Assembly: GCA_040401595.1 (NCBI GenBank)
Contig: JBBAOE010000003.1
Span: forward strand, 139,459-203,458
Direction of reading: 5' to 3'
DNA length: 64,000 bases
Source of the DNA: Burkholderiaceae bacterium
Lineage (GTDB): Bacteria > Pseudomonadota > Gammaproteobacteria > Burkholderiales > Burkholderiaceae_E
Numbering within the stretch: the stretch's first letter is position 1; each line of letters starts with the position of its first letter. The translations under genes were made by a program, and so were the position numbers. Shown here piece by piece: positions 25,085-40,118 of the stretch. The notes beneath the pieces were generated by a model. That model searched no databases. It had not been told where the DNA came from and saw only the letters and a list, made by a program, of their open reading frames with translations.

Positions 25085-26071
25085 ATGGACAGTCTGGACC
25101 TGCAGGTTCTTGCGCAAGCGCGCGACTGGCTCAATGAAGGCCATGGGGTCTGGCTGGTGACCGTCATCGAGACCTGGGGTTCGGCGCCACGCCCGCCCGG
25201 GGCACTTCTGGCGTTGCGCAATGACGGTCTTGTTGTGGGCTCCGTCTCTGGGGGCTGTGTCGAGGATGACCTGATCGATCGGGTTCGTCATGGCGAACGG
25301 GTTGATCATCCCTCGCTCGTGACCTATGGTGTCACCAAGGAAGAGGCTGCGCGCTTCGGCCTGCCCTGTGGCGGCAATCTTCGCCTGGTGCAGGAGCCCT
25401 TGCGCGCCAGTGGCTGGGTCGATGAAGTGTTAACGCGGACCTCTGCCCATGAACTCGTGGCACGCCGCCTTGACCTACAGACCGGCGAGGTGACGGTTGA
25501 GGTGGCCGATCGTGCAGACACCTTTGCCTTCGATGGCAAAACGCTGCGCGCCCTGTTTGGGCCCCGCTGGCGATTGCTGATGATCGGTGCCGGGCAGCTG
25601 TCGCGTGCCGTTGCAACGATGGCGCTCGCACTCGATTTTGACGTGATCTGCTGTGATCCTCGAGAGGAGTATCACCTGACTTGGGACGTTCCCGGCACGA
25701 CGTTCAGCAAGGCAATGCCCGATGACCTGGTCCTTGAACTCGCACTCGATCCGCATAGTGCGGTGATCGCATTGACACATGACCCCAAGCTCGACGACAT
25801 GACGCTGCTGGAGGCGCTGCGTTCGCCAGCCTTCTATATCGGTGCGCTGGGTTCGCGCGGCAACACGCAGAAGCGCAAGGAGCGCCTGAAGGAATTCGAT
25901 CTGACTGAGGCGCAGATCGATCGCCTGCACGGCCCGATCGGCCTTGATCTTGGCAGCAAGACGCCAGCGGAAATTGCGGTCTCCATCGTGGCGGAGATCA
26001 TCGCCGTACGAAACGGTGTTGCGCTGGCCCAGAAGAAAACAGGTTCCTCGATCCCTGGGGCTAAGACCTAG
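25085..26071 (+). CDS. XdhC/CoxI-family molybdenum cofactor insertion chaperone
   Basis: An N-terminal XdhC_CoxI-like region (GSAPRPPGA) is followed by a Rossmann-like LLMIGAGQLS. Confidence 0.8.
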   Translation: MDSLDLQVLAQARDWLNEGHGVWLVTVIETWGSAPRPPGALLALRNDGLVVGSVSGGCVEDDLIDRVRHGERVDHPSLVTYGVTKEEAARFGLPCGGNLRLVQEPLRASGWVDEVLTRTSAHELVARRLDLQTGEVTVEVADRADTFAFDGKTLRALFGPRWRLLMIGAGQLSRAVATMALALDFDVICCDPREEYHLTWDVPGTTFSKAMPDDLVLELALDPHSAVIALTHDPKLDDMTLLEALRSPAFYIGALGSRGNTQKRKERLKEFDLTEAQIDRLHGPIGLDLGSKTPAEIAVSIVAEIIAVRNGVALAQKKTGSSIPGAKT

Positions 26072-27220: not shown

Positions 27221-28216
27221 ATGATTCTTGTCATGGGTGCCGGGGCAGTCGGCTGTTTTCTTGGCGGGCTCCTGCAGGCGTCGGGGCTCGAGGTCGTCTA
27301 CGTGGGGCGACCGAAGGTGCTCGATGCCTTGTCCACTCATGGGCTGACCCTGACCGATCTGGAGGGACGTCGGCTTACCATCGATGCGCGTGACCTGAGG
27401 CTCGCTACCGAGGTACCAGCGGGGCTTGTGCCGTCCGTGACACTGCTATGTGTCAAGGCCGGTGCGACACCGGAGGCGGCAATGAGCCTTCAGTCCAGCC
27501 TCCCTGCCGGCAGTGTGGTCGTCTCCATGCAAAACGGGATCGGACAGGCAGGCCGTGCCGAGCGTGTTGCACCATCGTTGTGTTTTCTCGATGGGATGGT
27601 CTCGTTCAATATTGCGAACCTTGGTGCGGGTCAGTACCACCGTGGAACGGCCGGATTTTTGGCGGCAACTGACCACCCGATGCTGCAAGCCGTCGTCGCG
27701 GCGTATCGTTCTCAGCAACTCGGGCTGCGGCTGGTTGCGGATATGCGTCCGATTCAGTGGGGAAAACTCCTGCTGAACTTGAATAACCCCGTCAACGCGC
27801 TATCCGGACTGCCACTTCGCGAAGAATTGATGCAAGACGGCTACCGACGTTGCCTGGCGGCACTGCAGGAAGAGGCCCTGGGGGTCCTGGGCGCGGCAGT
27901 GATCGAGCCTGCACAGCTGACCGCGGTCGCGCCACGGACGTTTTTGCGCGTGTTGCGGTTGCCGACCTTTCTGTTTCGCGTATTGGCCAGGCAAGCGCTC
28001 AAGATCGATGTCAAGGCACGCTCCAGTATGGCCGATGATCTGAGCGCGGGGCGCCAAACTGAAATTATCTGGTTGTGCGGTGAGGTTCAACGCTTGGCAG
28101 AGTCGGTCGGGCTCAATGCCCCCTTGAATGCGCGGATGCAGGCTCTGGTGGAGGCCTGGCCGCAGCGCGGGGCGCCGTATTCCCCCAGGCAACTGATGGA
28201 GTCTCTCGGAATTTGA
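27221..28216 (+). CDS. panE: 2-dehydropantoate 2-reductase (ApbA/PanE family)
   Basis: N-terminal MILVMGAGAVGCFLGG Rossmann motif, with PanE-like length and a C-terminal domain. Confidence 0.8.
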   Translation: MILVMGAGAVGCFLGGLLQASGLEVVYVGRPKVLDALSTHGLTLTDLEGRRLTIDARDLRLATEVPAGLVPSVTLLCVKAGATPEAAMSLQSSLPAGSVVVSMQNGIGQAGRAERVAPSLCFLDGMVSFNIANLGAGQYHRGTAGFLAATDHPMLQAVVAAYRSQQLGLRLVADMRPIQWGKLLLNLNNPVNALSGLPLREELMQDGYRRCLAALQEEALGVLGAAVIEPAQLTAVAPRTFLRVLRLPTFLFRVLARQALKIDVKARSSMADDLSAGRQTEIIWLCGEVQRLAESVGLNAPLNARMQALVEAWPQRGAPYSPRQLMESLGI

Positions 28217-28308
28217 CGATTAGCCCGCGACAAGTTCATGTGCACTTGAGGAATTTTCATCCAAGCTTGTCCAGACCAACTGTCGTGCGCTTCATGCGGG
28301 AGGGACTC

Positions 28309-28737
28309 ATGCGCAATGTCGGAGCGTTTCTGAAGGACCAACGGGGGCCGGTCTGGTCAGTCCACCCCGATCAGACTGTCCGTGAAGCGCTTGAGCTTCT
28401 GGCCAGACACAACATCGGCGCGTTGCTCGTCCTGCGCGATGCGCATCTGGAGGGTGTCTTTTCGGAACGCGATTACGCCCGCAAGGTTGCCTTGGAGGGG
28501 CGCAGCAGCAACGACACCCGGATCGCCGAGGTCATGACAACCCACGTTATCCACGTGTCGCCCGAACACTCGATCGAAGCGTGCATGGAGCTGATGACAA
28601 ACCACCGAATCCGCCATCTCCCGGTCCTCGATGGCGATCAGTTGATAGGCCTGATCTCTATCGGAGATGTGGTGCGGGAGATGCTTGCGGCGCAACAGTT
28701 TTTAATCGATCAGTTGCACCATTACATCGCTGGCTGA
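28309..28737 (+). CDS. CBS-pair domain protein
   Basis: This is ORF 28213.. trimmed to ATG 28309, which has GGAGG 5 nt upstream. Two CBS repeats are present (HNIGALLV.. and HRIRHLPVLD..GLISIGD). Confidence 0.8.
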   Translation: MRNVGAFLKDQRGPVWSVHPDQTVREALELLARHNIGALLVLRDAHLEGVFSERDYARKVALEGRSSNDTRIAEVMTTHVIHVSPEHSIEACMELMTNHRIRHLPVLDGDQLIGLISIGDVVREMLAAQQFLIDQLHHYIAG

Positions 28738-28805
28738 TCCATCGTCGCGGGCGTTGGTCGAGCCGAACCTGGGGCCGCGAGGCACCGGGTTCCTGCGTCC
28801 CTGCG

Positions 28806-30239
28806 TTACAGCCCGGCCTGCGTCACAAACTTGCTGTTGAGGTAGGCGCTGATCGCTTCACTACCGCCTTCCGAGCCGTAGCCCGAGTCCTTGACCCCGC
28901 CAAAGGGGGTTTCAGGAATTCCCAGACCCACGTGGTTGATCGAAATCATGCCGGTCTCGACCGAAGCCGCAATCGCTTGCGCGGTTTTGGCCGAACGGGT
29001 CCAGGCGTAGGCAGCCAGTCCGAACGGCAACCGATTGGCCTCACGCACGGCATCTTCGAAGCTGCCAAACGGATTGATCACCGCGAGAGGGCCGAATGGC
29101 TCTTCGTTCATGGCGCGAGCATCATTCTCGAGTTCCGTCACGACGGTCGGTTCCCAGAAGTTGCCGTGTTTGCCGATTTCATGGCCGCCTGCGCGCACTT
29201 TGCCCCCATGTTTCTGTGCATCCTCGATGTTGGCCTGCATGGCTGTGATGCGCCGCGGGTTGGCGAGAGAGCCCATCTGGGTGCCCGCTTCCAGGCCATT
29301 ACCGACCTTCAGCTTATTGGCGTGGGCAACGAACTGTTCGACGAAGCTGGGATAGATGCCTTCCTGCACCAGAAAACGGGTGGGCGAGATGCAGACCTGA
29401 CCGGCATTGCGGAATTTGCTCGCGGCCATCACCTTGGCGGCGACCGCGGCATCGGCATCGTCAAAGATGATCACGGGGGCATGGCCACCGAGTTCCATCG
29501 TGGCGCGCTTCATGTGCTGGCCCGCCATTGCCGCCAGATGCTTACCCACGACGGTTGAACCGGTGAACGAAATCTTGCGGATGATGGGATGCGGGATCAA
29601 ATACGACGAAATGGCGGCCGGGTCGCCGTAGACCAGATTGACCACACCAGCCGGTATTCCAGCATCCACAAAGCACCGAACCAGTTCTGCGGGAGACGCT
29701 GGAGTCTCTTCGGGCGCCTTGATGATGATCGAGCATCCTGCCGCGACGGCCATCGAAAGCTTGCGCACGACCTGATTGACAGGGAAGTTCCAGGGCGTGA
29801 AGGCAGCGACCGGGCCGACCGGTTCCCGCACGAGCAGCTGGTAGACGCCCTCGGCGCGCGCCGGGATCACCTGGCCGTAGGTGCGCCGCGCCTCTTCTGC
29901 GAACCAGTCGATGATGTCCGCCGAGTTGAGGATTTCCATTTTGGCTTCGGCGAGCGGTTTGCCTTGCTCCATGGTCATGGCCTGGCACACGCGATCGACG
30001 CGATCCCGCAGCAATTGAGCCGCCTTGCGCATGACCTTGGAACGCTCGAATGCGGACACCTTGCGCCACACAGCGAAGCCTCGATCGGCCGCTTCGAGCG
30101 CTCGGTCCAGATCCGCCTGTTCGGCAAACGCAACCGTGCCGATGGGCTCCCCAGTTGCGGGATTCACCACCGGGATCGTGCGCCCTGCCGCCGCATCGCA
30201 CCAGGCGCCGTCGATGAAGAGTTGAGTATTTGGATACAT
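28806..30239 (-). CDS. NAD(P)-dependent aldehyde dehydrogenase, succinate-semialdehyde dehydrogenase-like
   Basis: Trimmed to ATG 30239 ([13 protein letters not shown]). Motifs: FTPWNFP, ELGGHAP and GQVCISPTR (catalytic Cys). The 110-codon upstream extension in the ORF track is Arg/Gly/Trp-rich and implausible. Confidence 0.85.
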
Positions 30240-30247
30240 GCTTTTCC

Positions 30248-31558
30248 TCAGCTGGCCTGAACCGCACGGGCGGATGCCTGAGCCGCGTATTTCCCCAGCT
30301 CCAGTTTGGCCAGCGCAGCGCGGTGGACCTCGTCGGGGCCATCGGCAAAGCGCAGTGTGCGCGCCCCAGCCCACATGCCAGCCAGGGGGAAGTCGCCGCT
30401 GACACCACCACCGCCATGGGCCTGAATCGCCTGGTCGATGATGTCGCAGGCGACATTGGGTGCGACGACCTTGATCATCGCGATTTCGGCCTGGGCGGAC
30501 TTGTTGCCAGCCTTGTCCATGATCCAGGCCGCTTTCATCGTCAGCAAGCGGGCCATCTCGATCCGGCAACGCGCATCGGCGATCCGCTCATGCCAGACGC
30601 TTTGGGTGGAAACCGGGCGACCGAAGGCGACCCGGCTGGTCAGGCGTTTACACATCAATTCGAGGGCGCGCTCGGCCAGGCCAAGCAGGCGCATGCAATG
30701 GTGGATCCGCCCTGGTCCGAGGCGGCCCTGAGCGATTTCGAAACCGCGCCCTTCGCCCAGCAGGATGTTGGAGGCTGGAACCCGGGCATGATCGAAGACG
30801 ACTTCGCAGTGCCCATGGGGTGCATCGTCGTAGCCATAGACACTGAGTGGGCGCAGGATTTTGACGCCTTCGGTGTCGACCGGCACCAGAATCATCGACT
30901 GCTGCTGGTGACGATTGGCATTCGTGGGGTCGCTCTTGCCCATGACGATCATGATTTTGCAACGCGGGTCACCCGCGCCGCTGATCCACCACTTTCGGCC
31001 CGTGATCACATACTCATCCCCGTCACGTTCGATGCGGGTCTCGATATTCGTTGCATCGCTCGAGGCGACGGCTGGTTCGGTCATCGCAAACGCCGACCGA
31101 ATCTCTCCCGCCAGCAGCGGCTTGAGCCAGCGCTCGCGATGTTCAGGCGCAGCGTAGCGGCGCAGCGTCTCCATGTTGCCGGTATCGGGAGCGCTGCAAT
31201 TGAAGACTTCTGGCGCCCACGGAATCTGGCCCATGATTTCGGCCAGCGGCGCGTACTCGACATTGGTCAGGCCTGCGCCGTGTTCGGCCGAGAATTGCGC
31301 ATGGAATTCTGAATGAGCTCCGCCCGCCTGGCCGCCCGATGGGTCGGTGGCCGGCAACCAGAGGTTCCAGAGCCCGGCTGCGCGAGCCTTGGGCTTGAGT
31401 TCTTCAATCACCGGCAGGGGTGACCAACGCTGGCCGCGCGCGGTCTGTTCGGCCAGTTCTTCTTCGAAGCGATGCTCCGCAGGGTAGACGTGAGTTTGCA
31501 TGAAAGCGCGAACGCGCTCCTGAAGCGCCTGGGCGCGGGGGGTATGAGCAAAGTCCAT
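30248..31558 (-). CDS. Acyl-CoA dehydrogenase of the ACAD10/ACAD11 (FadE2-like) type
   Basis: The N-terminal [14 protein letters not shown] motif and overall layout match the ACAD domain of ACAD10/11-type proteins, and the C-terminal helical domain is typical. Confidence 0.85.
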
Positions 31559-31676
31559 GGGTCTTGGTCTCCGATTTGATCGTTCAGATGTTGGGAATCA
31601 GATGGTGGAAATGAGCGGTGTCGTCGGTCCGGGCTGTATCCGTCGCCGATGTTGGTTGAGAGTCAGGGCGTTTCGT

Positions 31677-33629
31677 TCAGGAAAGGTCAGCCGCGGATGC
31701 GCGAGCGGTGCGCCAACCAAGCTCAGCCAGTGGCCGTGCCCGCTTGCCGGATTGGATGGCTTCGGCGCTAGAGGCTGTGCCATCGACCGCTCGCTTCATG
31801 ATTCCCTGCAGGATACCGGCGAGCCGGAACAGGTTGAACGCTAGGTAAAACCGCCATGCTTGCGGCGCGATCGCCTGACGACCGGTGCGCTCGAGATAAC
31901 GGTCTAAATAAGCCTGCGCGGTCGGAATGCCAAGGCTGGGCAGATCCAGACCCGTCATCCCACGGAATACGTTCGGCTCGAGGTGCCAGACCATGACGTT
32001 ATAGGAAAAATCAGCGAGTGGATGGCCTAGCGTGGAGAGTTCCCAGTCCAGCACTGCCAGCACCCTGGGTTCGTTCTTCGCAAAGATCAAGTTATCCAGA
32101 CGGAAATCCCCATGCACGATTGCGGTTTCGTCACCGGCCGGAATATGCGCTGGCAACCAGTCGATCAGGGCTTCCATCGCGTCGATCTTTTCTGTTTCAC
32201 TCGCGCGGTACTGTTTGGTCCAGCGCGTGATCTGGCGCTCGAAGTAATTGCCCGGGCGACCAAAGTCGCCGAGCCCAACGGCTGCATAATCGACCTGGTG
32301 GAGCGCGGAGATGACCCGGTTCATGTCGTCGAAGATGGCGGTGCGCTCGGCATTGGAGAATCCGGGCAGACTCGGGTCCCAGAGGACGCGACCGTCAACA
32401 TGTTCCATCCAGTAGAACGCCCGCCCGATCACGGATTCGTCTTCGCACAGCGCCACCATCTTCGCGACCGGAACATCGGTGCTGGCGAGCGCTTGCTGAA
32501 CGCGGAATTCCCGTTCGATGGCATGTGCCGAGGGCAGGAGTTTCGATGCCGGTCCCGGTTTGGTGCGCATGACCCAGCGTCGGCCAAGACCATCGCGGTC
32601 CAGCGCCGCGCTGGACCCGCCCGAACCCGCTCCTTGCTGCGCGTTGCGCGCAGTCACCAGATAGGTGGGATTCGATTGGCCCCCTTTGAACTGGGTGACT
32701 TCCAGGCCATGTTGCGCCTCGGGAATATGGCTGCGAGCCCAGGCCTCCAGGGCTTCGAGTTCGAAGCGATGGCTGTCAGCGATCGGTTTGGTGCCCACGA
32801 AGGCCGAGGCTGCATCGAACGATTTCGAGGCTGGGCTCTGGGTGGCGGCGGCCGCCGCTGCATCAGTGGGTGCGCCGTTGATTGCACTGCTCATTGCGTT
32901 TGAACTCCCCGGATTGGACTTGCGCCAGACAAGGTACTGCATCAGCAGATTTTCCATCGTCGAATGCCGGCTCCTGGGTTGGAGCAAATCGACAGCCGAG
33001 ACGTTGACATGACGAATGATCCAATCCCGATCGGCCTCGCCGACATCGAGCGCATTGATGCAGGCGGGTGCTTGTGAAAGGCCGCCCAGCAGTGTTCGGC
33101 TCCCGGTCAGGGCATACGAGAGCACCACCCGATTCACGCCCCCGTGCAGGACCAGGAGGACGGTGCGCCAGGTCGGATCATGGCGAAGACGGGCGATCGC
33201 GGGATGAACCCGGTCCATGAGTTCGCCGATGGATTCGCCACCGAGGAAACGGGTCTGCTCGTCGACCGTCCCTTCAAACGCGCCCAGAAATGACTGACGC
33301 AGATCTTCGTCCGGGATCGCCGTGAGATGGCCGCCACGAATTTCCTGCAGTTCGGGCCAGGCTTCCAGAGTCGTCTCCGGGTGGTTCGCCGCGGCGAGAA
33401 CGCGGGTCGCGGTTTCGACGGTGCGGTTCAGGCCGCTGGTAATGACCCGATCAAAGTGGATTGCCTCGGCCCCGAACATACGCCCCGCAGCATCGGCCTG
33501 GTCGCGGCCTTCGGCGTCGAGTGAAATCGTGAGCGGATCAAATGGGGAACCGTCCGGCGCAAAGTAGGTGACGCTGCCGTGGCGCATGAGGTAGATGCGG
33601 CGGCGTTCGGGCGGGGTGAAGTGGAGCAT
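31677..33629 (-). CDS. Fusion protein: histidine-phosphatase (PGAM-like) domain + aminoglycoside-phosphotransferase-fold kinase domain
   Basis: The N-terminus carries IYLMRHGSVTY (RHG) and LLVLHGGVNR. An Ala-rich linker follows. The kinase half carries QFKGGQSNPTYLV, IVHGDFRLDNLIF and VLDWELSTLGHPLADF. Confidence 0.8.
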   Translation of the reverse strand: MLHFTPPERRRIYLMRHGSVTYFAPDGSPFDPLTISLDAEGRDQADAAGRMFGAEAIHFDRVITSGLNRTVETATRVLAAANHPETTLEAWPELQEIRGGHLTAIPDEDLRQSFLGAFEGTVDEQTRFLGGESIGELMDRVHPAIARLRHDPTWRTVLLVLHGGVNRVVLSYALTGSRTLLGGLSQAPACINALDVGEADRDWIIRHVNVSAVDLLQPRSRHSTMENLLMQYLVWRKSNPGSSNAMSSAINGAPTDAAAAAATQSPASKSFDAASAFVGTKPIADSHRFELEALEAWARSHIPEAQHGLEVTQFKGGQSNPTYLVTARNAQQGAGSGGSSAALDRDGLGRRWVMRTKPGPASKLLPSAHAIEREFRVQQALASTDVPVAKMVALCEDESVIGRAFYWMEHVDGRVLWDPSLPGFSNAERTAIFDDMNRVISALHQVDYAAVGLGDFGRPGNYFERQITRWTKQYRASETEKIDAMEALIDWLPAHIPAGDETAIVHGDFRLDNLIFAKNEPRVLAVLDWELSTLGHPLADFSYNVMVWHLEPNVFRGMTGLDLPSLGIPTAQAYLDRYLERTGRQAIAPQAWRFYLAFNLFRLAGILQGIMKRAVDGTASSAEAIQSGKRARPLAELGWRTARASAADLS

Positions 33630-33668
33630 GGGACGCGGGGTTGGCGGTGTCGGGCGAAGCCCCCCATT

Positions 33669-34802
33669 TTAGGACAAGGCAGCGAAGCGCTCTACATGCG
33701 TATCGGTATTTCCGGCGCTGATTTCGATGGCCAGCAGACGCTTGAACCAGTGACTCACCACCATCTCGTCGGTCATCCCCATGCCGCCATGCAGTTGCAC
33801 CGCCTCCTCGCGGATGCGTCGAGCCGCTTCGCCGATGGTGACCTTGGCGGCGCACAGTGCTCGTTCACGCTCATGCTCATCCTCGGCATCGCACCGCAAG
33901 GCTGCGAGCAAGCTCATGGAGCGCGCCAGTTCCAGATGAATTTGCATGTCGACCGCCCGATGCTGGAGCGCCTGAAAGCGGCCAATTGGTTGGCCGAACT
34001 GCTGGCGTGTGCGCAGATACTCGATCGTGGCGGTGACGGTCGCCTCCATCACGCCGACCGCTTCAGCGCACAGTGCCGCCAGCCCGATACCGAGCGCCTT
34101 TTCAATCGCTGGCAATGCCGACCCCGCTTGCCCCACACAGGCGCTGGCCGGCAAGTACAAGCCATCGAACCAGAGGTCGGCTGCGCGCAATCCGTCGATG
34201 GTTTTGAAGGCCTTCATGCGCAGGCCTGGGGTGTCGGGGGCAACCAGAAACAGCGAAACGCCCGCGGCATCGCCGGGAGCTCCGCTCAGGCGCGCAGACA
34301 CCAGAAGCGCATCGGCAGCCGGTGCATGGACGATCACGGCTTTGTGCCCGGTCAGACGCCAGCCACCGTCCTCGGCCACGGCATGGGATTCGACCCAGTT
34401 GTTACGACCATGGGATCCAGCTTCCTGGTGCGCCAGGACGACAATCTGTTCGCCCGCTGCCATCGCGGGTAGCAGCGAATCCGCGGTCGCCGGATCGGCG
34501 AAATCCCGCAAGAGCGCCGTCGCAATCACGGCACTTGCCAGGACCGGTTCGGCCAGCAGGGCCGGTCCGGCAGCCTGCATGGCCAGTTCGATCTCCACTG
34601 GTCCAAAGCCCAATCCGCCCCGCGCTTCCGGCACCAGAATGGCGGGTACGCCTAGCTCAGCCAGGCCATTCCAGATGCTTCGGCTCCAGCCCTCGGTACT
34701 GGCCACAATGGCCCGGCGGTCAGCAAATGCATACCGGCCCTTGACAAAGCGTGAGACGGCATCGCGCAGCTGTGTCTGTTCTTCGGTGTAGACAAAATTC
34801 AT
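33669..34802 (-). CDS. Acyl-CoA dehydrogenase family protein
   Basis: Typical ACAD N-terminus MNFVYTEEQTQLRDAV and C-terminal QLHGGMGMTDE. Confidence 0.85.
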   Translation of the reverse strand: MNFVYTEEQTQLRDAVSRFVKGRYAFADRRAIVASTEGWSRSIWNGLAELGVPAILVPEARGGLGFGPVEIELAMQAAGPALLAEPVLASAVIATALLRDFADPATADSLLPAMAAGEQIVVLAHQEAGSHGRNNWVESHAVAEDGGWRLTGHKAVIVHAPAADALLVSARLSGAPGDAAGVSLFLVAPDTPGLRMKAFKTIDGLRAADLWFDGLYLPASACVGQAGSALPAIEKALGIGLAALCAEAVGVMEATVTATIEYLRTRQQFGQPIGRFQALQHRAVDMQIHLELARSMSLLAALRCDAEDEHERERALCAAKVTIGEAARRIREEAVQLHGGMGMTDEMVVSHWFKRLLAIEISAGNTDTHVERFAALS

Positions 34803-34807
34803 GATCT

Positions 34808-35983
34808 TCAGAGCCCCAGAACCATCTGCGAAACGATATTTTTCTGAATTTCATTCGATCCACCAAAGATCGAAAGCTTGCGCAGGTTGCAATAAAGTGG
34901 TGCCAGGCCTGCCGCATGTTCGGGGCCTACCTCATCGCGCTCGAACAGCAGGCCATAGGGCCCGACAGCCTGCAACATGAGTTCCGAGAGGCTCTGGAGG
35001 ATTTCGGTCCCCTTGATTTTAAGGATTGACGGCATCGCGCCAGGGGCTTTGCCGCCCTCGGCGACCGAGAGCAGACGCAGGTTGGTCATTTCCAGAGCCA
35101 TCAGCTCGATCTCGACCCGGGCGAGGCGGGCGCTGAAGACCGGATCGTCCTTGAGGGGCCGGCCATGACGCTGCTCGGTGGTGGCGATTTTCTTGAGTCG
35201 CCCCAGGGTGCGCTTGCTGACCCCGATCCCGCCCAGATTCGTACGTTCGTGTCCGAGCAGGAATTTGGCATAGGTCCACCCCTCGTTTTCCTGGCCAACC
35301 AGATTCTCAACGGGTACCCGAACGTCTTCGAACCACACCTCGTTGACTTCCCGGCCGCCGTCGAGCAGCGTGATCGGGCGTACGGTAATGCCCGGCGTCT
35401 TCATGTCGATGAGCAGAAAACTGATGCCCCGCTGCGCCTTGGCTGCGGGGTCGGTCCGTACCAGACAAAAAATCCAGTCCGCATACTGGCCCAGTGTGGT
35501 CCAGGTTTTCTGTCCGTTGACGACGTAGTGGCCGGTCGCTGCATCGAGGACTGCACGTGTTTTGAGCGAGGCGAGATCAGAGCCTGAACCCGGCTCCGAG
35601 TAGCCCTGACACCACCAGTCCTGCGCAGCCGCGATTCGGGGCAGGAACTTCGACTGCTGATCGGCGGAACCAAATTTCATGATGACCGGTGCGACCATCT
35701 TGATGCCAAAGGCCGGCAACGGTGGCGCTGCTGCCCGGCTGCACTCTTCATCGAAAATGAATTGCTCGATCGAGGTCCATCCAGGTCCGCCAAATTCCCT
35801 TGGCCAATTGGTGGCTCCCCAGCCCTTTCGGTGCAGGATACGATGCCATTCGATGTACTCGTCGCGCTCGAGCGGGCGCGTGCTTGCCACCTTCGCGCGG
35901 ATCGTTTCGGGCAGGGAGGATTCGATGAAGCTACGGACTTCGAGACGAAATGCTTCCTCAGCCGGGGTGAAATTCAGATCCAT
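34808..35983 (-). CDS. Acyl-CoA dehydrogenase family protein
   Basis: ATG 35983 reads MDLNFTPAEEAFRLEVRSFI. Other motifs are WCQGYSEPGSGSD and IFGGSNEIQ. It lies 5 bp upstream of the next ACAD, so the two may form a heteromeric pair. Confidence 0.85.
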   Translation of the reverse strand: MDLNFTPAEEAFRLEVRSFIESSLPETIRAKVASTRPLERDEYIEWHRILHRKGWGATNWPREFGGPGWTSIEQFIFDEECSRAAAPPLPAFGIKMVAPVIMKFGSADQQSKFLPRIAAAQDWWCQGYSEPGSGSDLASLKTRAVLDAATGHYVVNGQKTWTTLGQYADWIFCLVRTDPAAKAQRGISFLLIDMKTPGITVRPITLLDGGREVNEVWFEDVRVPVENLVGQENEGWTYAKFLLGHERTNLGGIGVSKRTLGRLKKIATTEQRHGRPLKDDPVFSARLARVEIELMALEMTNLRLLSVAEGGKAPGAMPSILKIKGTEILQSLSELMLQAVGPYGLLFERDEVGPEHAAGLAPLYCNLRKLSIFGGSNEIQKNIVSQMVLGL

Positions 35984-36002
35984 GAATAGTCTCAAAATAT
36001 AT

Positions 36003-36019
36003 TGGCATATTAGATGCCA
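36003..36019. promoter_or_regulatory. Inverted repeat TGGCAT-N5-ATGCCA upstream of the ACAD pair
   Basis: It lies in the AT-rich 106-bp spacer between the ligase stop (36090) and the ACAD start (35983). Two GACGTCA copies follow at 36033 and 36042. Confidence 0.3.
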
Positions 36020-36089
36020 TTATAGATGTTTTGACGTCAGGGACGTCATGAAGTAGCGGGCGCTAAGGGTCTGGCTAAGCGACCCGGTT

Positions 36090-37748
36090 TCAACGGGCAC
36101 GCTCTCGGTCTTGCAGCAGCCGCCATTGAACCTTTCCGGTACCGGACTTTGGCAGGGTCGACACGAATTCGATCAGGCGCGGTACTTTGTACGCGGCCAT
36201 GTGTGCGCGGGCCCAATCGATGATGGCTTCTTCGCTCACCTTGCCCAAAAAATCTGGGCGCAGAACTACCACCGCCTTGACGGTCTCCCCGCGTATCGGA
36301 TCTGGGGCGGCAATGATGCAGGCCTCGTGGATCGCGGGATGTCCGTACAGCAGCGATTCGACTTCCGCCGGCCAGACTTTGAAACCCGATGCATTGATCA
36401 TGCGTTTGAGTCGGTCGACCATGAAGAAATAACCATCCTCATCGACCCGACCAAGGTCCCCGGTACGCAGGAACCGTTTGCCATCGAGCGTGATGAAGGA
36501 TTCTTCGTTGGCCTTGGGCTGGTTCCAGTACCCCTGCATGATGGGCGGACCGTGAACGACGATCTCCCCGGTTTCGCCCTGGGCGAGTTCGGTCAGCGTG
36601 CTCGGGTCGATAATCCGGGAATCCACGCCTACAAAGGGGATCCCCAGACATTGACGCTTGGGCCGCTGGGGTGGATTGACATGGGTGGGCGCCATGGTCT
36701 CTGTCATGCCATAGCCCTCGACGTAGGACACTCCCAGCAACCGGTGCATGCGCGCAGCCACGGCTTCCGGCATCGCGGCACCTCCGCCATTGATCCGCTG
36801 GATAGACGACAGATCAAAGGTCTCCAGTTCGGGATGGGCCAGCAAATCCACCACCATGGCAGCGATCAGGCTGAGCGCATTGATGCGATGGCGGGTGATG
36901 CATCGCAGCGCGACATCGCGGTCCCAGCGCGCCAGCACGACCACCGTGGCGCCCAGATAGAGCGGCCCATTCATGCTGCCTTGCATACCCGTGACATGAA
37001 AAAAGGGCAGCGCTGCGAGGAACACCGTTTCGTTGTGGGTGCTGAACCAGGTGAGCGGAACGACGGTGTTGTGCATGACACTGCGATGCGTATGCATGCA
37101 ACCCTTCGGATTGCCGGTCGTGCCTGAGGTATAGGGCATGACGCACAGATCACCGGCTTGCGAGGTGCGGGTCGTTGCCCGGTGGCCTGCGGCGATTGCG
37201 GTGACCCAAGGCGTCGCGCCCGGAAGATCGAGCGCCACGCGTGGTTCGCACACGAAGTCGGGGATATTCAGATCGGTGGGAACGCGGAGATAGTCGCTGT
37301 AGCAGGCCACCACCAGGTGGTCGAGGGTTTGCGACAGCAGCGGCGCAACTTCGCCCAGGAGGTTTTGCGCAACGATCGCCGTTTTCGCGCCTGAGTCGCG
37401 CACCATGTGCGTCAACTCTTCGGTTCGGTTCATCGGATTGACAGGAACCACGACTGCCCCTGCACGCAGGATGGCGTAAAAACCGATGATGAACTGCGGA
37501 CTGTTTTGCAGATAAAGAACAACCCGCTCGCCCGGGCGCACACCGCAGGGGCCTTGCAAATGACCGGCCAGAGCCTCACAGTCGTCCCTGAACTGCGCGA
37601 ACGTCAGTGGACTGTCATAGAAGATGAGGAAGTTCTTGTCGGGCCACCGCCAGGCGGAAATTTCGACGTTGGCGTACAGATCCGTGTCCGGCACCGAGAG
37701 GGTGCGCGGCAGTCCCGGTGGCCAGTGAGGCCAGTGCAGATCGCTCAT
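36090..37748 (-). CDS. AMP-dependent acyl-CoA synthetase/ligase
   Basis: Trimmed to ATG 37748 (MSDLHWPHWPPGLP). Motifs: YTSGTTGNPKG, GYGMTE and TGDLGRVDEDGYF. Confidence 0.85.
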   Translation of the reverse strand: MSDLHWPHWPPGLPRTLSVPDTDLYANVEISAWRWPDKNFLIFYDSPLTFAQFRDDCEALAGHLQGPCGVRPGERVVLYLQNSPQFIIGFYAILRAGAVVVPVNPMNRTEELTHMVRDSGAKTAIVAQNLLGEVAPLLSQTLDHLVVACYSDYLRVPTDLNIPDFVCEPRVALDLPGATPWVTAIAAGHRATTRTSQAGDLCVMPYTSGTTGNPKGCMHTHRSVMHNTVVPLTWFSTHNETVFLAALPFFHVTGMQGSMNGPLYLGATVVVLARWDRDVALRCITRHRINALSLIAAMVVDLLAHPELETFDLSSIQRINGGGAAMPEAVAARMHRLLGVSYVEGYGMTETMAPTHVNPPQRPKRQCLGIPFVGVDSRIIDPSTLTELAQGETGEIVVHGPPIMQGYWNQPKANEESFITLDGKRFLRTGDLGRVDEDGYFFMVDRLKRMINASGFKVWPAEVESLLYGHPAIHEACIIAAPDPIRGETVKAVVVLRPDFLGKVSEEAIIDWARAHMAAYKVPRLIEFVSTLPKSGTGKVQWRLLQDRERAR

Positions 37749-37764
37749 GGCGGCTCGGTCCGGC

Positions 37765-38538
37765 TCAGATAATGCTCGAGCCGCCATCGACTGCGATGGC
37801 CTGTCCCGTGATGTGGCGGGCTGCATCGCTGGCGAGGAACACAACGGCGCCCTTCAGGTCCTCTTCTCCGCCAATACGGCGTAGCGGCGTGCGGGCCATC
37901 AGCGAATCGGCAAATTTCTCGATCAGTGCATTGGCCATTTTGGAGGGGAAAAACCCTGGGCAGATGGCATTCACATTGATGCCGTATTGGCCCCATTCTG
38001 CCGCCAGTGCGCGGGTGAAGTTGATCAGGGCTGCCTTCGACGTGTTGTAGGCAATCGTCTGCATGCCCGGGGGGTTGCCCCTGAGACCCGCAATGGAGGC
38101 CAGATTGATGATCTTGCCGCGCCCTGCAGGGATCATGATGCGACGACCGACTTCGCGAGACAGATGAAACGGAGCGTCGACGTTGAGCGTCATCACTTTG
38201 CGCCAGGCCTCGTCCGGATAACTTTCCGCAGGCGCGCCCCAGGTGGCCCCCGCGTTATTCACCAGAATGTCGATCGTTCCAAATCGAGCGATCACCGCGT
38301 CAACCAGCGGCGCGACGTTCTGGGCTTGGCTCAGATCACAGGGAACTGCCAGCACTTCGAACCCTTGAGCTTCGAGCGTTGCCTGCGCCTCCGAGAGTTC
38401 AGCTGGCTTGCGGGCACAAATGGCCAGTTTGCAGCCCATCTCGCCCAACGCTTCGGCCATCTGCAGGCCAAGACCACGTGAAGCACCCGTCACCAATGCG
38501 ACCCGATTGGTCAGATCAAACAATGCCTTGACACTCAT
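37765..38538 (-). CDS. SDR-family oxidoreductase (FabG-like)
   Basis: ATG 38538 has an upstream GGAGGTGGGTGG. Motifs: VALVTGASRGLG and YNTSKAAL. Confidence 0.85.
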   Translation of the reverse strand: MSVKALFDLTNRVALVTGASRGLGLQMAEALGEMGCKLAICARKPAELSEAQATLEAQGFEVLAVPCDLSQAQNVAPLVDAVIARFGTIDILVNNAGATWGAPAESYPDEAWRKVMTLNVDAPFHLSREVGRRIMIPAGRGKIINLASIAGLRGNPPGMQTIAYNTSKAALINFTRALAAEWGQYGINVNAICPGFFPSKMANALIEKFADSLMARTPLRRIGGEEDLKGAVVFLASDAARHITGQAIAVDGGSSII

Positions 38539-38681
38539 CCACCCACCTCCAAATTCGATTCGCGATAAAGTTCCGCGACTCAATGATTTTCTGAACGCTT
38601 TCGACAGCTCTGGCGAACACGGTATCGCTTACGCCCGAGCAACGTCAATCGTGGTCAACCCGCCCAATTTGGAGATCCACC

Positions 38682-39662
38682 ATGAACGCTCTGATGTGCC
38701 ACGCCTGGGGGCCTATTGATCAACTTCGTCTTGAAGAAGTTGATGATCCGCATCCCGGACCAGGCCAGGCGGTCGTCGATGTGCATGCCGCGTCGGTGAA
38801 CTTTCCGGATGCACTGATCGTTCAGGGCAGCTATCAGGTCAAACCGCCCTTGCCGTTTTCGCCCGGTGCGGAGCTGGCCGGTGTCGTGCGTGAAGTGGCG
38901 CCCGATGTCACCCATGTCAAAGTGGGGGACCGCGTCATTGCATTTCCGGGCTATGGCGCGTTCGCCGAGCGTTGCCTCGTGGATGCGGCCCGCTTGATGC
39001 CTCTGCCTGCCGAGATGGATTTCGACACCGGCGCATCCTTCATGCTGACCTACGGCACCTCGATCCACGGCCTGCGCACGATCGGCAAACTGCAGGCGAA
39101 CGAAACCCTCCTGGTCCTGGGGGCTGCAGGCGGGGTCGGTCTTGCTGCCATCGAGATCGCTCGCGCGATGGGGGCCAACGTGATCGCTGCGGCATCCAGT
39201 GATCAGCGCCTGGCGCTTTGTCGCCAACATGGCGCGCAAGAAACCATCAATTACAGTACGGAAGACCTTCGGGCCCGGATCGATGCGCTCACGTCACGCC
39301 GCGGCGTTGATCTGGTCTACGACCCGGTCGGCGGCCCTCTGGCGGAAACCGCCTTGCGCTCCACAGCCTGGCGCGGCCGCTATCTCGTAGTTGGGTTCGC
39401 TGCTGGTGAAATCCCGAAGATTGCACTCAATCTGGCGTTGTTGCGCGAGCGCGCCATCCTGGGCGTGTTCTGGGGGGATGCGATGCGTCGCGAACCAGCC
39501 TTATTGAAAAACGATATGAAAACGCTGGTGGGCTGGTTTCACGAGGGTAAGGTCCGCCCTGCGATCCAGGAGCGCGTTGGCCTGGCAGGTGCTGCCGACG
39601 CCATTGCGCGTATGGCCCGACGTGAAGTGATTGGTAAGGTCGTCGTTCTTCCCCAGCAATAG
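38682..39662 (+). CDS. NADPH:quinone oxidoreductase-like MDR protein
   Basis: A GroES-like N-terminus is followed by VLGAAGGVGLAAIEIA, a Rossmann motif. Confidence 0.85.
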   Translation: MNALMCHAWGPIDQLRLEEVDDPHPGPGQAVVDVHAASVNFPDALIVQGSYQVKPPLPFSPGAELAGVVREVAPDVTHVKVGDRVIAFPGYGAFAERCLVDAARLMPLPAEMDFDTGASFMLTYGTSIHGLRTIGKLQANETLLVLGAAGGVGLAAIEIARAMGANVIAAASSDQRLALCRQHGAQETINYSTEDLRARIDALTSRRGVDLVYDPVGGPLAETALRSTAWRGRYLVVGFAAGEIPKIALNLALLRERAILGVFWGDAMRREPALLKNDMKTLVGWFHEGKVRPAIQERVGLAGAADAIARMARREVIGKVVVLPQQ

Positions 39663-39671: not shown

Positions 39672-40118
39672 ATGCTCACCATTGAAAACCTGCGTCACCG
39701 AATCGGCGAAGAAATTGCCGTCAGTGAATGGCTTGAAATTGATCAGAACCGCGTCAACCTCTTTGCCGATGCCACCGATGACCATCAGTGGATTCATGTC
39801 GATGTCGATCGGGCCCGGCGGGAGTCGCCCTACGGTGCTCCGATTGCTCATGGCTTTCTGACGCTCTCGTTGCTGGCGCGTTTTTCGGGTGAACTCCTGC
39901 GAGCCGACGGCGTGCGGCTCGGTCTGAATTATGGTCTCGACAAAGTCCGTTTTATTTCACCGGTGCGTGTCGGTGACCGCTTGCGTGCCCGCTACACGCT
40001 CGGAAGTCTTACCGATGTCGACGGTGGGGTCCAGGTGAGTTGGACGGCGACGATCGAAATCGAGGGGGCGGAAAAGCCAGCCTGCGTTGCGCAGACGCTG
40101 GTGCGCTGGCTGTTCTAG
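39672..40118 (+). CDS. MaoC-family (R)-specific enoyl-CoA hydratase, hot-dog fold
   Basis: DDHQWIHVD and IAHGFLTLSL are typical MaoC dehydratase motifs. Confidence 0.85.
   Translation: MLTIENLRHRIGEEIAVSEWLEIDQNRVNLFADATDDHQWIHVDVDRARRESPYGAPIAHGFLTLSLLARFSGELLRADGVRLGLNYGLDKVRFISPVRVGDRLRARYTLGSLTDVDGGVQVSWTATIEIEGAEKPACVAQTLVRWLF

Follow-up and report, generated by a model that had tools for sequence, protein, structure and literature searches.

A rare phosphatase-kinase fusion in an ACAD10/11-type gene module common in Burkholderiales

Gene content and predicted products of the locus

The window, the whole 64,000-nucleotide stretch of DNA analysed, comes from a Burkholderiaceae bacterium, a soil or freshwater betaproteobacterium. 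Table 1 lists the features of the locus. In the central 650-aa protein, a histidine phosphatase domain (aa 1-237) is joined through a disordered linker to an APH kinase of the ACAD10/11 type, and the downstream gene encodes an acyl-CoA dehydrogenase (ACAD) of the ACAD10/11/LvaC type. The coordinates and minus-strand orientation assigned to both genes in a preliminary description of this DNA were exact, and all the motifs it cited were found: IYLMRHGSVTY (aa 12-22) and LVLHGG (aa 159-164) in the phosphatase domain, QFKGGQSNPTYLV (aa 313-325), HGDFRLDNLIF (aa 506-516) and DWELSTLG (aa 528-535) in the kinase, and an N-terminal motif at aa 60-69 of the ACAD. The profile-HMM assignment proposed there matched all three families, with His_Phos_1 covering aa 12-200 of the 650-aa protein (107.8 bits, against a Pfam cut-off of 21.7), APH covering aa 310-549, and the ACAD matching Acyl-CoA_dh_N, _M and _1.

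Table 1. Features of the fusion locus, with window positions.
Feature	Position	Strand	Basis
Aldehyde dehydrogenase, SSADH-like, 477 aa	28806..30239	-	Pfam Aldedh E 1.6e-156
ACAD10/11/LvaC-type dehydrogenase (predicted 4-phosphoacyl-CoA phosphate-eliminating enzyme), 436 aa	30248..31558	-	PDB matches, motifs
Phosphatase-kinase fusion protein, 650 aa	31677..33629	-	
ACAD10/11-type APH-fold kinase (predicted 4-hydroxyacyl-CoA kinase), aa 278-650 + stop	31677..32798	-	Pfam APH E 8.6e-49, PDB matches
Inter-domain linker, aa 238-277, rich in Ala/Ser/Pro	32799..32918	-	AF2 pLDDT, junction comparison
Histidine phosphatase domain (His_Phos_1, branch 1), aa 1-237 of fusion	32919..33629	-	Pfam E 7.4e-31
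PimD-like ACAD (small subunit type)	33669..34802	-	Pfam; NCBIfam pimD_small 3e-93, under cut-off
PimC-like ACAD (large subunit type)	34808..35995	-	Pfam; NCBIfam pimC_large 3.4e-146, under cut-off
Acyl-CoA synthetase (AMP-binding)	36090..37844	-	Pfam AMP-binding 2e-90
SDR oxidoreductase	37765..38583	-	Pfam adh_short_C2 1.5e-59
Zn-ADH/quinone-oxidoreductase family gene	38682..39662	+	Pfam
MaoC-type (R)-hydratase gene	39672..40118	+	Pfam

The aldehyde dehydrogenase gene, probably the final gene of the operon, begins 8 nt past the ACAD stop codon; its product matched the NCBIfam SSADH subfamily at 5.6e-139, under the cut-off. The PimD-like ACAD gene comes immediately before the fusion gene in the direction of transcription (gap of 39 nt) and is a conserved neighbour in many related loci, where it is found on the opposite strand; the PimD/PimC-like pair is absent at the corresponding position in the GTDB MAG L005. 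The synthetase, which probably starts further downstream than the listed TTG, scored 856 bits against NCBIfam PRK08314 (cut-off 705) and shares 30% identity with the synthetase at the lvaE position in Stutzerimonas, and the SDR shares 38% identity with the SDR at the lvaD position in the same cluster. Family and operon position suggest that the synthetase fills the functional position of LvaE, and the SDR may fill that of LvaD (4-oxoacyl-CoA to 4-hydroxyacyl-CoA). The Zn-ADH and MaoC genes are transcribed divergently from the fusion operon. In locus L003, the ACAD gene is also followed by an aldehyde dehydrogenase gene, with DNA that aligns with the corresponding stretch here, and the Zn-ADH/MaoC pair sits immediately upstream of the fused gene, in the same orientation.

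In PDB searches, the kinase matched a Cupriavidus APH protein (3dxp; E 3e-153), mouse ACAD11 (E 2.3e-75) and 9o56 (E 1.1e-46), and the ACAD matched mouse ACAD11 (E 2.5e-142), human ACAD11 (2wbi; 7.5e-139) and 4hr3 (2.3e-133), with the best ordinary ACAD at only 5.5e-39. Both proteins therefore fall with the ACAD10/11 group, as previously proposed, on matches far beyond chance. The key kinase residues are R355 (beta3), E374 (alphaC), the catalytic D508, N513 and the DWE beginning at D528, with R373 and R465 as CoA-contact equivalents; D508, N513, R373 and R465 align with D220, N225, R86 and R176 of mouse ACAD11 (roles taken from PMC12440821 and PMC13596139). A lineage-specific Gly/Ser-rich insertion occupies about aa 327-350. 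The ACAD, the ATG of which is preceded by GGAG at 10 nt, contains all the phosphate-binding and catalytic residues described for mouse ACAD11 (PMC12440821): R279, R284, H287 and R290 of the phosphate-binding helix and the catalytic D406 (ADGPDEVH) correspond to R626, R631, H634, R637 and D753.

The phosphatase catalytic core (R16, H17, R69, E96 and H162) was invariant in alignments of 13 and 36 phosphatase sequences and is retained in Thermus, Azospirillum and Stutzerimonas homologues. The catalytic residues, which the preliminary description had proposed to check by alignment, are thus intact, and the domain is predicted to be catalytically competent. Its subfamily is marked by two features outside the catalytic core that are kept from Thermus to Burkholderiales: the motif RRR at aa 9-11 and, at aa 224-238, a C-terminal helix containing TME..L..QY. 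The domain was modelled by AF2 with a pLDDT of 84.6 and a pTM of 0.83; the nearest folds were those of small-molecule phosphatases (CobC, GpgP Rv2419c, RosC and PSP), and the best PDB sequence match was the PFKFB phosphatase domain (E 1.8e-6).

Distribution of the module and origin of the fusion

The window contains a rare fused form of a three-gene phosphatase/kinase/ACAD module common in Burkholderiales. Among the 80 GTDB species with phosphatases closest to the window domain, 76 have the phosphatase in a gene of its own immediately upstream of the kinase gene, and one other has it fused to the kinase; the kinase lies within 7 kb in two, and none was found in the remaining species. The ACAD gene directly follows the kinase gene in 69 of the 80, and the three genes are consecutive in two Paraburkholderia loci (L079 and L081). 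All five of the stand-alone kinases looked up had a His_Phos_1 gene upstream, adjacent in four cases (two with an overlap of 8 nt) and 2.5 kb away in the fifth. No fused representative was present among the best 150 of 1.84 billion cluster representatives. A kinase homologue was found in 268 plasmid records, only two of which carried the phosphatase-kinase pair. In the related loci examined, the Burkholderiales module lacked a DUF6285 gene, and no lipid-synthesis genes were seen next to it.

The same fused architecture was identified in four further 90%-identity protein clusters (P0002-P0005), the members of which come from assemblies that are independent of one another (ENA, JGI, Logan and NCBI), and in L005; an assembly artefact was ruled out as the source of the fusion on this basis. 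The fused proteins have diverged to 68-87% identity, with the phosphatase and kinase domains changing at similar rates, and the fusion probably arose a second time, independently, in P0005. The linker is long, variable and disordered; in the window protein, it exceeds that of the closest fused homologue by about 34 aa (comparison with P0002-P0005) and has a pLDDT of about 40 at aa 250-272. The AF2 model of the whole protein (pTM 0.57) had no defined mutual arrangement of the two domains and therefore offered nothing in the structure to suggest channelling or an interface.

Residues 2-237 of the phosphatase domain are 56% identical to a stand-alone 241-aa phosphatase of Cupriavidus necator. In Ralstonia syzygii, the phosphatase and kinase genes are in the same frame, with one stop codon and 36 nt between them, and a single point mutation suffices for fusion where the genes share a frame in this way. 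This in-frame pair and the 8-nt overlaps seen elsewhere indicate that the fusion arose by stop-codon loss. Given that 76 of the 80 closest species encode the phosphatase separately, just upstream of the kinase, the window fusion is a late joining of two operon neighbours, not derived from a HAD-bearing ancestor.

Comparison with known kinase/ACAD and kinase/phosphatase systems

The textbook example of a branch-1 histidine phosphatase that is fused to a kinase and acts on the product of that kinase is PFKFB, 6-phosphofructo-2-kinase/fructose-2,6-bisphosphatase (PDB 1c7z, 1k6m and 5hr5). The window protein likewise combines a kinase and a branch-1 histidine phosphatase in one chain, but PFKFB has a P-loop kinase rather than an APH kinase, the reverse domain order and a regulatory sugar bisphosphate rather than a catabolic intermediate as its product, and the similarity between the two phosphatases is at superfamily level only. 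A kinase fused to a phosphatase of its own product would run a futile ATP cycle unless specificity or regulation differed.

Mammalian ACAD10 (HAD-APH-ACAD) and ACAD11 (APH-ACAD) (PDB 8v3u, 8v3v and 2wbi) belong to the same kinase and ACAD families as the window proteins, with conserved catalytic, CoA-contact and phosphate-binding residues, but the ACAD of the window is encoded by a separate gene. Their published chemistry is 4-hydroxyacyl-CoA phosphorylation followed by FAD-dependent phosphate elimination, and the attribution of this mechanism to the window proteins holds for close relatives (PMC11342911, PMC12440821): the Burkholderia pseudomallei kinase and ACAD substitute for the ACAD10 domains in vitro and the Burkholderia kinase orthologue phosphorylates 4-hydroxyhexanoyl-CoA (Paquay 2024, PMC11342911), and Rashan 2025 (PMC12440821) supports the same mechanism. 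The B. pseudomallei proteins (kinase Q63VL0 and ACAD Q63VL1) belong with those of the window to a bacterial ACAD10/11-like clade and come from the same taxonomic order; they are stand-alone, not phosphatase-fused, and Paquay et al. 2024 mentions no phosphatase gene.

The N-terminal HAD domain that the preliminary description gave for ACAD10 is real (PMC11342911; frog ACAD10, P0262, is HAD+APH+ACAD), and a phosphatase-fold domain thus precedes the kinase in both ACAD10 and the window protein. The suggestion of a non-homologous domain replacement stood as a parallel in architecture; the replacement itself was not borne out, since the phosphatase is separate in 76 of the 80 species. The two phosphatase folds are unrelated, with a full catalytic set in the window domain and an incomplete DxD motif in the HAD domain, and the window fusion is convergent with ACAD10, a neighbouring gene having been joined to the kinase independently. 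The role of the HAD domain is not settled either: in one study, it showed negligible activity towards 4-phospho-hydroxyacyl-CoA but restrained the kinase (PMC11342911), whereas a 2026 preprint describes it as an ether-lipid phosphatase (PMC13596139).

Pseudomonas putida's lva operon, as reportedly described by Rand et al. in 2017, encodes the LvaA kinase, LvaB, the LvaC ACAD, the LvaD SDR and the LvaE synthetase; the 12-kDa LvaB binds LvaA. Its logic and enzyme families are the same as those of the window operon, which likewise has an SDR and a synthetase, but its kinase and ACAD form a separate, deeper branch (23% and 34% identity between the Stutzerimonas lva-type cluster and the window, respectively). 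Unlike the P. putida operon, the window has no LvaB/DUF6285-type gene, and the P. putida lva genes given in PMC6692424, unlike the window, include no phosphatase. A histidine phosphatase gene beside an lvaA homologue is already known from Pseudomonas citronellolis LA18T, in which it occupies the place of the absent lvaB and its function was left open (Habe et al. 2019, PMC6692424). Phosphatases 35-43% identical to the window domain also occur in ACAD/APH/DUF6285 clusters of Thermus, Azospirillum and Stutzerimonas (including S. stutzeri), the ACADs of which carry an HCMR motif and the Asp base; these phosphatases share the RRR..RHG start and the TME-type C-terminal helix with the window domain. 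The P. citronellolis, Stutzerimonas, Thermus and Azospirillum clusters thus resemble the window in having a histidine phosphatase gene inside a 4-hydroxyacyl-CoA kinase/ACAD cluster, but their genes are separate, with the phosphatase downstream of the kinase; their kinases and ACADs are of the Lva type, and a DUF6285 protein usually accompanies them.

Proposed pathway and role of the phosphatase

We consider it fairly probable that the locus is a bacterial bypass for 4-hydroxy (and probably 4-oxo) acids into beta-oxidation, with the phosphatase as an accessory hydrolase of phosphoacyl species. The synthetase would activate the acid, the SDR would reduce it if the substrate were a 4-oxo acid, the APH-fold kinase would phosphorylate the 4-hydroxyl of the acyl-CoA, and the ACAD10/11/LvaC-type flavoenzyme would remove the phosphate to give 2-enoyl-CoA, from which the MaoC hydratase and the remaining ACADs of the cluster would continue. 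The predicted kinase and ACAD steps rest on the published biochemistry of close relatives and on residue-by-residue conservation in the window; by analogy, the substrate range of the kinase may be wider than assumed (1-O-alkylglycerols; preprint PMC13596139).

The phosphatase is placed as an accessory enzyme because in vitro reconstitutions without a phosphatase carry out the core reaction with just the kinase and the ACAD (PMC11342911); from these reconstitutions, the P. putida lva operon and the scarcity of the pair in plasmid records, we infer an accessory rather than a core role. Gene linkage and the intact catalytic residues suggest that it most likely hydrolyses phosphoacyl-CoA or derived free 4-phospho-acids. 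Candidate substrates would be surplus intermediate, the incorrect enantiomer or phosphoesters in the wrong position, and such a safety valve or proofreading activity would stop dead-end phosphorylated CoA esters from trapping CoA. The same hydrolysis function had initially been suggested for the ACAD10 HAD domain, in which it was not found (PMC11342911).

It is rather unlikely that the phosphatase serves chiefly to regulate or support the kinase, like LvaB or the ACAD10 HAD domain, acting by contact or by taking an inhibitory or activating phosphate off the kinase rather than on a metabolite. The fusion and the 8-nt overlaps do argue for 1:1 stoichiometry and physical association, and the lvaB place of the P. 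citronellolis gene, the lack of DUF6285 in the Burkholderiales module, the restraint of the kinase by the ACAD10 HAD domain and the conserved elements outside the core would all fit. However, five catalytic residues invariant across distant phyla would be needless in a purely structural role, the co-occurrence of DUF6285 and phosphatase in Thermus, Azospirillum and Stutzerimonas indicates that they are not simple substitutes, the nearest folds are metabolite phosphatases rather than the protein phosphatases of the superfamily, and no fixed interface is predicted in the fusion. Less probable still is a functionally neutral fusion, an accidental loss of a stop codon with the phosphatase as a housekeeping passenger in the operon. 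Its rarity, the single mutation required and the disordered linker are consistent with neutrality, but the phosphatase is adjacent or fused to the kinase in 77 of the 80 species, its relatives turn up again in kinase/ACAD clusters with a different gene organisation in three further phyla or classes, and the fused form has persisted through considerable divergence, with a probable second origin. Finally, a role in ether-lipid salvage, with the kinase acting on alkyl- or acyl-glycerols under CoA-ester activation and the phosphatase on a lysophosphatidate-type lipid, finds a precedent for a phosphatase and this type of kinase in a single lipid pathway in the 2026 preprint (PMC13596139), in which ACAD10-type kinase domains, including several from prokaryotes, phosphorylate chimyl alcohol and 1-O-acylglycerol and are activated by CoA or its thioesters, and the HAD domain dephosphorylates 1-O-alkyl-2-acetyl-glycero-3-phosphate and 1-O-alkyl-glycero-3-phosphate, but it appears highly improbable given the acyl-CoA setting of the genes (synthetase, three ACADs, SDR and MaoC hydratase), the ACAD that usually follows the kinase and has phosphate-binding residues making sense only for phosphoacyl-CoA, the 4-hydroxyhexanoyl-CoA activity of the Burkholderia orthologue, the absence of lipid-synthesis genes beside the module in the loci examined and the unrelated folds, which preclude transfer of the HAD activity by homology.

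Adjacency or fusion in the surveyed species, the five kinases looked up, the Ralstonia pair and the distant clusters show that the phosphatase truly belongs with the kinase. The fusion marks these co-translated partners as a functional pair, and, together with the kinase and the ACAD, the phosphatase looks like a conserved third part of the 4-hydroxy fatty acid pathway.

Identity of the two proteins and their conserved residues

The fusion gene and the ACAD10/11-type gene of the preliminary description were both recovered where it had placed them, together with every motif it had quoted, and its domain and enzyme identifications proved largely right when judged by Pfam, matches to solved structures and conserved residues. 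Profile searches recovered His_Phos_1 at aa 12-200 of the 650-aa protein (E 7.4e-31; 107.8 bits against a cut-off of 21.7; profile positions 1-185 of 194), APH at aa 310-549 of the same protein (E 8.6e-49) and all three acyl-CoA dehydrogenase (ACAD) domains in the 436-aa protein. Neither protein reached the cut-off of any NCBIfam model.

The catalytic core of the branch-1 histidine phosphatases is complete in the phosphatase domain, with R16 and H17 (RHG), the second arginine R69, the acid/base glutamate E96 and the second histidine H162. All five residues were invariant in two alignments, among 13 and among 36 relatives, and were also retained in the phosphatase homologues of Thermus, Azospirillum and Stutzerimonas; an absence of catalytic residues, which would have spoken against the preliminary description, was thus not observed. 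The domain falls into no named NCBIfam subfamily (CobC, GpmB, SixA, PspA and others), all scores being far under the cut-offs and the highest that for ribazole_cobC (66.8 bits versus 162.9). The AF2 model of this domain alone was a confident alpha/beta fold (pLDDT 84.6, pTM 0.83) that matched CobC, GpgP, RosC and dPGM with a probability of 1.00. The closest solved folds, at 16-26% identity, were those of small-molecule phosphatases and mutases: CobC, the glucosyl-3-phosphoglycerate phosphatase Rv2419c, RosC and phosphoserine phosphatase.

Among solved structures, the Cupriavidus APH protein 3dxp was nearest to the kinase part (E 3e-153), followed by mouse ACAD11 (E 2.3e-75, over aa 281-643) and the ACAD10-type kinase 9o56 of Caldalkalibacillus (C. 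thermarum; E 1.1e-46), after which the next match fell to 3ats (1.5e-8). By sequence, the kinase is a member of the clade containing the ACAD10/11 kinase domains and 3dxp. It has D508 and N513 of the HGDxxxxN motif, the metal motif D528-W-E, the beta3 arginine R355 and the alphaC glutamate E374 (residue roles taken from PMC12440821 and PMC13596139). D220 and N225 of mouse ACAD11 correspond to D508 and N513, and its CoA-contact arginines R86 and R176 to R373 and R465.

The ACAD was clearly separated from ordinary ACADs: the best of these reached only 5.5e-39, versus 2.5e-142 for mouse ACAD11, 7.5e-139 for human ACAD11 (2wbi) and 2.3e-133 for the mycobacterial protein 4hr3. Because the ACAD11-type matches far exceed the best ordinary one, its proposed place within the ACAD10/11 clade was upheld. 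Residues R626, R631, H634, R637 and D753 of mouse ACAD11 correspond to R279, R284, H287 and R290, in the phosphate-binding helix (aa 278-290), and to D406, in ADGPDEVH (aa 405-412), an aspartate catalytic base where glutamate is usual. The window proteins thus keep every residue whose importance in mouse ACAD11 was demonstrated by Rashan et al. (PMC12440821). ATP-dependent phosphorylation of 4-hydroxyacyl-CoA has been shown for mouse and human ACAD10/11 and for Burkholderia pseudomallei Q63VL0 (PMC11342911, PMC12440821), and phosphate elimination for ACAD10/11, LvaC and B. pseudomallei Q63VL1 (cited papers); the B. pseudomallei kinase and ACAD, which are of the same type, substitute for the matching ACAD10 domains in vitro (PMC11342911). 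The window pair is therefore predicted, on well-founded homology, to comprise a 4-hydroxyacyl-CoA kinase and a 4-phosphoacyl-CoA phosphate-eliminating ACAD.

Fused and separate phosphatase and kinase genes

The main new result is that the fusion is a rare form of a common module. In a search of a collection of 5.8 billion proteins, with fused proteins counted as 90%-identity clusters among the best hits, phosphatase and kinase were combined in only five clusters (P0001-P0005); the remaining listed matches were stand-alone kinases of about 359 aa, save for one enoyl-CoA hydratase-kinase fusion. A phmmer search of 1.84 billion representatives, clustered at 50% identity, had no fused protein in its 150 best hits, which indicates rarity rather than absence, because clustering at 50% absorbs fused proteins into kinase clusters. 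A protein search with the phosphatase domain was excluded from the fusion count, as P0001-P0005 were missing from its best 120 hits although they must match.

The GTDB was scanned, one genome per species, using aligned phosphatase-domain sequences as the query, and the kinase and ACAD were located in the 80 best loci. A separate phosphatase gene lay directly upstream of the kinase gene in 76 of these 80; the kinase was within 7 kb in two further loci and was not found nearby in one. The two were fused in a single locus (L005), a betaproteobacterial MAG that is the closest relative of the window (phosphatase domain 85% identical). An ACAD10/11-type gene directly followed the kinase in 69 loci, and of the eight in which no ACAD was found, five stop at the kinase or just past it. 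Conversely, all five stand-alone kinases examined have an upstream His_Phos_1 gene, adjacent in four cases and at 2.5 kb in the fifth; two of the four adjacent pairs overlap by 8 nt, as is typical of translational coupling. In Cupriavidus necator, the 241-aa His_Phos_1 protein encoded immediately before the 3dxp-type kinase shares 56% identity with the window domain over its full length. In Ralstonia syzygii, the two genes share a frame, and a single stop codon and 36 nt lie between them, so one mutation would fuse them. The preliminary description had suggested that the fusion would be a domain replacement; the architectural parallel with ACAD10 holds, but the gene is so regularly a separate upstream neighbour that independent fusion of a conserved operon neighbour is the better description.

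Clusters P0001-P0004 group into a single clade for phosphatase and kinase alike (68-87% identity). P0005, known from one contig, has a kinase more similar (71%) to unfused ones, and this suggests that fusion occurred independently a second time. An assembly or frameshift artefact was rejected as the origin of the fusion, because it recurs in independent assemblies and its copies have diverged. In the AF2 model of the whole fusion, phosphatase and kinase were each well folded and a disordered linker connected them; with a pTM of 0.57, the domain arrangement is undefined and nothing can be concluded about a phosphatase-kinase interface. The linker contains a ribosome-binding-site-like GGGGAG 10 nt upstream of the ATG of Met245, but an internal kinase start is not claimed, because this methionine is absent from the linkers of P0002-P0004. 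Three Gly/Ala/Ser-rich low-complexity insertions were observed in the window lineage, in the linker, the kinase N-lobe loop and the ACAD. The hydratase fusion (P0037) is a cluster of 654-aa enoyl-CoA hydratase-APH kinase proteins from Burkholderiales MAGs, and in C. necator (L001 6366-9077) the phosphatase-kinase pair is immediately preceded by a hydratase gene; through this other type of fusion, the kinase is connected to beta-oxidation enzymes.

Gene context in the window and in other lineages

The genes around the fusion are ordered, on the minus strand, SDR, synthetase, PimC/PimD-like pair, fusion gene, ACAD10/11-type gene and aldehyde dehydrogenase, and everything in this operon context points to acyl-CoA metabolism. 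In a related contig (L003), the fused gene is flanked by the same set of genes, and the L005 MAG is collinear with the window from the ACAD to past the synthetase, the PimC/PimD-like pair being missing between its synthetase and fusion genes. In many Oxalobacteraceae, the PimC/PimD-like pair and a MaoC gene lie downstream on the opposite strand. Relative to L003, the block from synthetase to MaoC is inverted in the window, which also has an insert of about 2.8 kb between the aldehyde dehydrogenase and XdhC genes; the molybdenum hydroxylase block is syntenic. A branched-chain-amino-acid-type ABC transporter, whose permease genes account for the peak in AT skew at 42-44 kb, adjoins the acyl-CoA cluster here as it does in L003 and may therefore import the substrate. 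No promoter-like sites were found in a scan of 28000-40500, in which terminator-like sites were at chance level, and the whole 64 kb contained no tRNA genes and no Rfam families at gathering score.

Features of the window around the fusion gene
Feature	Coordinates	Strand	Remarks
CoxL-like molybdenum hydroxylase large subunit, then AAA ATPase, VWA/CoxE-like and XdhC maturation genes	19411-26071		
Insert relative to L003	26038-28806		SLAC1-type channel, ketopantoate-reductase-like and CBS-domain genes
SSADH-like aldehyde dehydrogenase	28806-30239	-	
ACAD10/11-type gene	30248-31558	-	436 aa; as in the preliminary description
Low-complexity insertion, ACAD	31277-31345	-	after LWLPA, aa 72-94
Fusion gene	31677-33629	-	650 aa; as in the preliminary description
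Stop codon of fusion gene	31677-31679	-	
Low-complexity insertion, kinase N-lobe loop	about 32580-32650	-	aa 327-350; predicted disordered
Low-complexity insertion, inter-domain linker	32799-32918	-	predicted disordered
GGGGAG and Met245 ATG	32895-32915	-	in linker
PimC-/PimD-like ACAD pair	34808-35995 and 33669-34802	-	both under NCBIfam cut-offs
Acyl-CoA synthetase	36090-37844	-	
Block inverted relative to L003	36098-40112		synthetase, SDR, Zn-ADH, MaoC
SDR	37765-38583	-	
Zn-ADH-family gene and MaoC hydratase gene	38682-40118		divergent
Branched-chain-amino-acid-type ABC transporter	40897-45298	-	binding protein, two permeases, ATPase
DRL-type oxidoreductase and PhyH-family dioxygenase genes	45518-47733		beside ABC transporter

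Like the lva-type operon (lvaABCDE), the window clusters kinase, ACAD, SDR and acyl-CoA synthetase genes on one strand (minus, 30248-38583). The association of phosphatase and kinase was also found outside Burkholderiales. Thermus brockianus (phosphatase 43% identical) and Azospirillum ramasamyi (38%) share a core of ACAD, APH, DUF6285 and histidine phosphatase genes; T. thermophilus HB8 (phosphatase gene TTH_RS10060) has SDR, AMP-binding, PaaI and MaoC genes ahead of this core. On a Stutzerimonas stutzeri plasmid (L094 4560-12529), a prpR-type regulator is followed by APH, DUF6285, histidine phosphatase, ACAD, SDR, acyl-CoA synthetase, DUF485 and acetate symporter genes; apart from the additional phosphatase gene, this is the lvaRABCDEFG order of the Pseudomonas putida operon. 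In the Thermus, Azospirillum and Stutzerimonas clusters, the ACADs bear the HCMR motif and the aspartate base and are therefore LvaC-type enzymes, and the window SDR and synthetase are 38% and 30% identical to the products of the Stutzerimonas genes in the lvaD and lvaE positions. In these loci (L094, L086, L095 and L087), a DUF6285 protein of 116-137 aa is always encoded between kinase and phosphatase. As the Stutzerimonas copy stands where lvaB does in the P. putida operon, DUF6285 is probably the LvaB family, a suggestion based on gene position in this one cluster. DUF6285 was not mentioned in the literature searched, and the flanks of the window fusion gene (gaps of 39 and 118 nt) are too short for an LvaB-like gene.

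The linkage nevertheless has limits. In Burkholderia cenocepacia, neither a kinase nor an ACAD gene lies within 6 kb of a phosphatase paralogue (34% identity), so that not every phosphatase this distant adjoins a kinase. In the plasmid collection, relatives of the phosphatase domain (E <= 1e-12) occurred in only 21 records, and just two of the 268 records with a kinase homologue had the phosphatase-kinase pair at the threshold applied. The phosphatase thus accompanies the pathway as an accessory in certain lineages and is not one of its universal components.

Possible role of the phosphatase

The kinase-plus-ACAD route for 4-hydroxy acids was established only between 2017 and 2025. By family and position, the synthetase would activate the acid to its CoA ester and the SDR would reduce a 4-oxo group; by homology to tested enzymes, the kinase would phosphorylate the 4-hydroxyl group of the acyl-CoA and the ACAD would eliminate phosphate to give the 2-enoyl-CoA. 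The phosphatase is probably an accessory enzyme that would take phosphate off phosphoacyl species (perhaps excess intermediate, the wrong isomer or free 4-phospho-acids) and would thereby protect the CoA pool, a role suggested by the linkage, the fusion, the intact catalytic residues and the sufficiency of kinase and ACAD in vitro. We tentatively propose, with doubts that outweigh our confidence, that the histidine phosphatase is an active, ancient and dedicated third component of the 4-hydroxy-acid bypass from Thermus to Burkholderiales, editing what the kinase makes through hydrolysis of 4-phospho-acids or of phosphoacyl-CoA esters that are dead ends or in excess. The one paper found to mention such a link described a levulinate-induced cluster of Pseudomonas citronellolis in which a histidine phosphatase gene (product WP_074983800) adjoins the lvaA homologue and lvaB is absent; Habe et al. 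proposed that the phosphatase might dephosphorylate 4-phosphovaleryl-CoA and asked for functional analysis (PMC6692424). Both ACAD10/11 papers leave a bacterial phosphatase unmentioned (PMC11342911, PMC12440821), a beta-proteobacterial RB-TnSeq paper is silent on these genes, and a broad literature search combining lvaA with Burkholderiales genera returned nothing relevant.

ACAD10 is a single HAD-APH-ACAD chain. The 650-aa protein has no HAD or Hydrolase match in Pfam, whereas PF00702/PF13419 are present in the animal ACAD10 sequences P0262, P0307 and P0356; kinase and ACAD share one polypeptide in ACAD10 but are encoded in the window by separate genes, with a stop codon, a 118-nt spacer and, for the ACAD, its own GGAG and ATG. 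P0317 (L088 2323-4128), which joins HAD and APH in 601 aa and begins with an ACAD10-like DLGG, was examined as a candidate prokaryotic HAD fusion; it lies on a compact 4.3-kb metagenome contig, where the preceding gene is intron-free (718 aa, no Pfam match), and may come from a prokaryote or from a microbial eukaryote. The role of the extra domain of ACAD10 is still disputed, between a brake on the kinase and an ether-lipid phosphatase. Paquay et al. found its activity on 4-phospho-hydroxyhexanoyl-CoA to be negligible, yet it restrains the kinase (PMC11342911); the bacterial phosphatase may likewise serve the kinase as a regulator or structural partner, in the manner of LvaB or of the HAD domain, although its catalytic residues are invariant. 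A 2026 preprint describes the HAD domain as a 1-O-alkyl-2-acetyl-glycerophosphate phosphatase and the kinase as an alkylglycerol kinase, an activity common to several prokaryotic homologues (PMC13596139), and the phosphatase-kinase pair may accordingly have a glycerolipid function, as proposed for ACAD10; the gene context points to acyl-CoA metabolism. A neutral fusion with a passenger phosphatase is hard to reconcile with the conserved synteny.

Systems of this kind are known, but little has been written about the fused architecture and, above all, about how widely phosphatase and kinase are linked. The window and 77 of 80 related species, in which the two genes are neighbours or fused, show that bacteria link a separate phosphatase with an intact catalytic set to this kinase, and a few lineages have it welded on. 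Why the pathway should need a phosphatase could be studied in a simple system open to genetics, for which C. necator, Paraburkholderia xenovorans, Ralstonia and T. thermophilus HB8 are candidates. A large protein family, at present labelled only "histidine phosphatase family protein" or "probable phosphoglycerate mutase", is also flagged for functional assignment, which matters where bacteria are to be engineered to grow on levulinate, gamma-valerolactone or other 4-hydroxy acids and build-up of phosphorylated CoA esters could limit flux. If the proposed editing role is correct, animals, with the HAD domain of ACAD10, and bacteria, with a His_Phos_1 domain that is even fused in some, would each have independently joined a phosphatase fold to the same kinase, which would point to a general need of the 4-hydroxy-acid pathway for a phosphate-removing safeguard.
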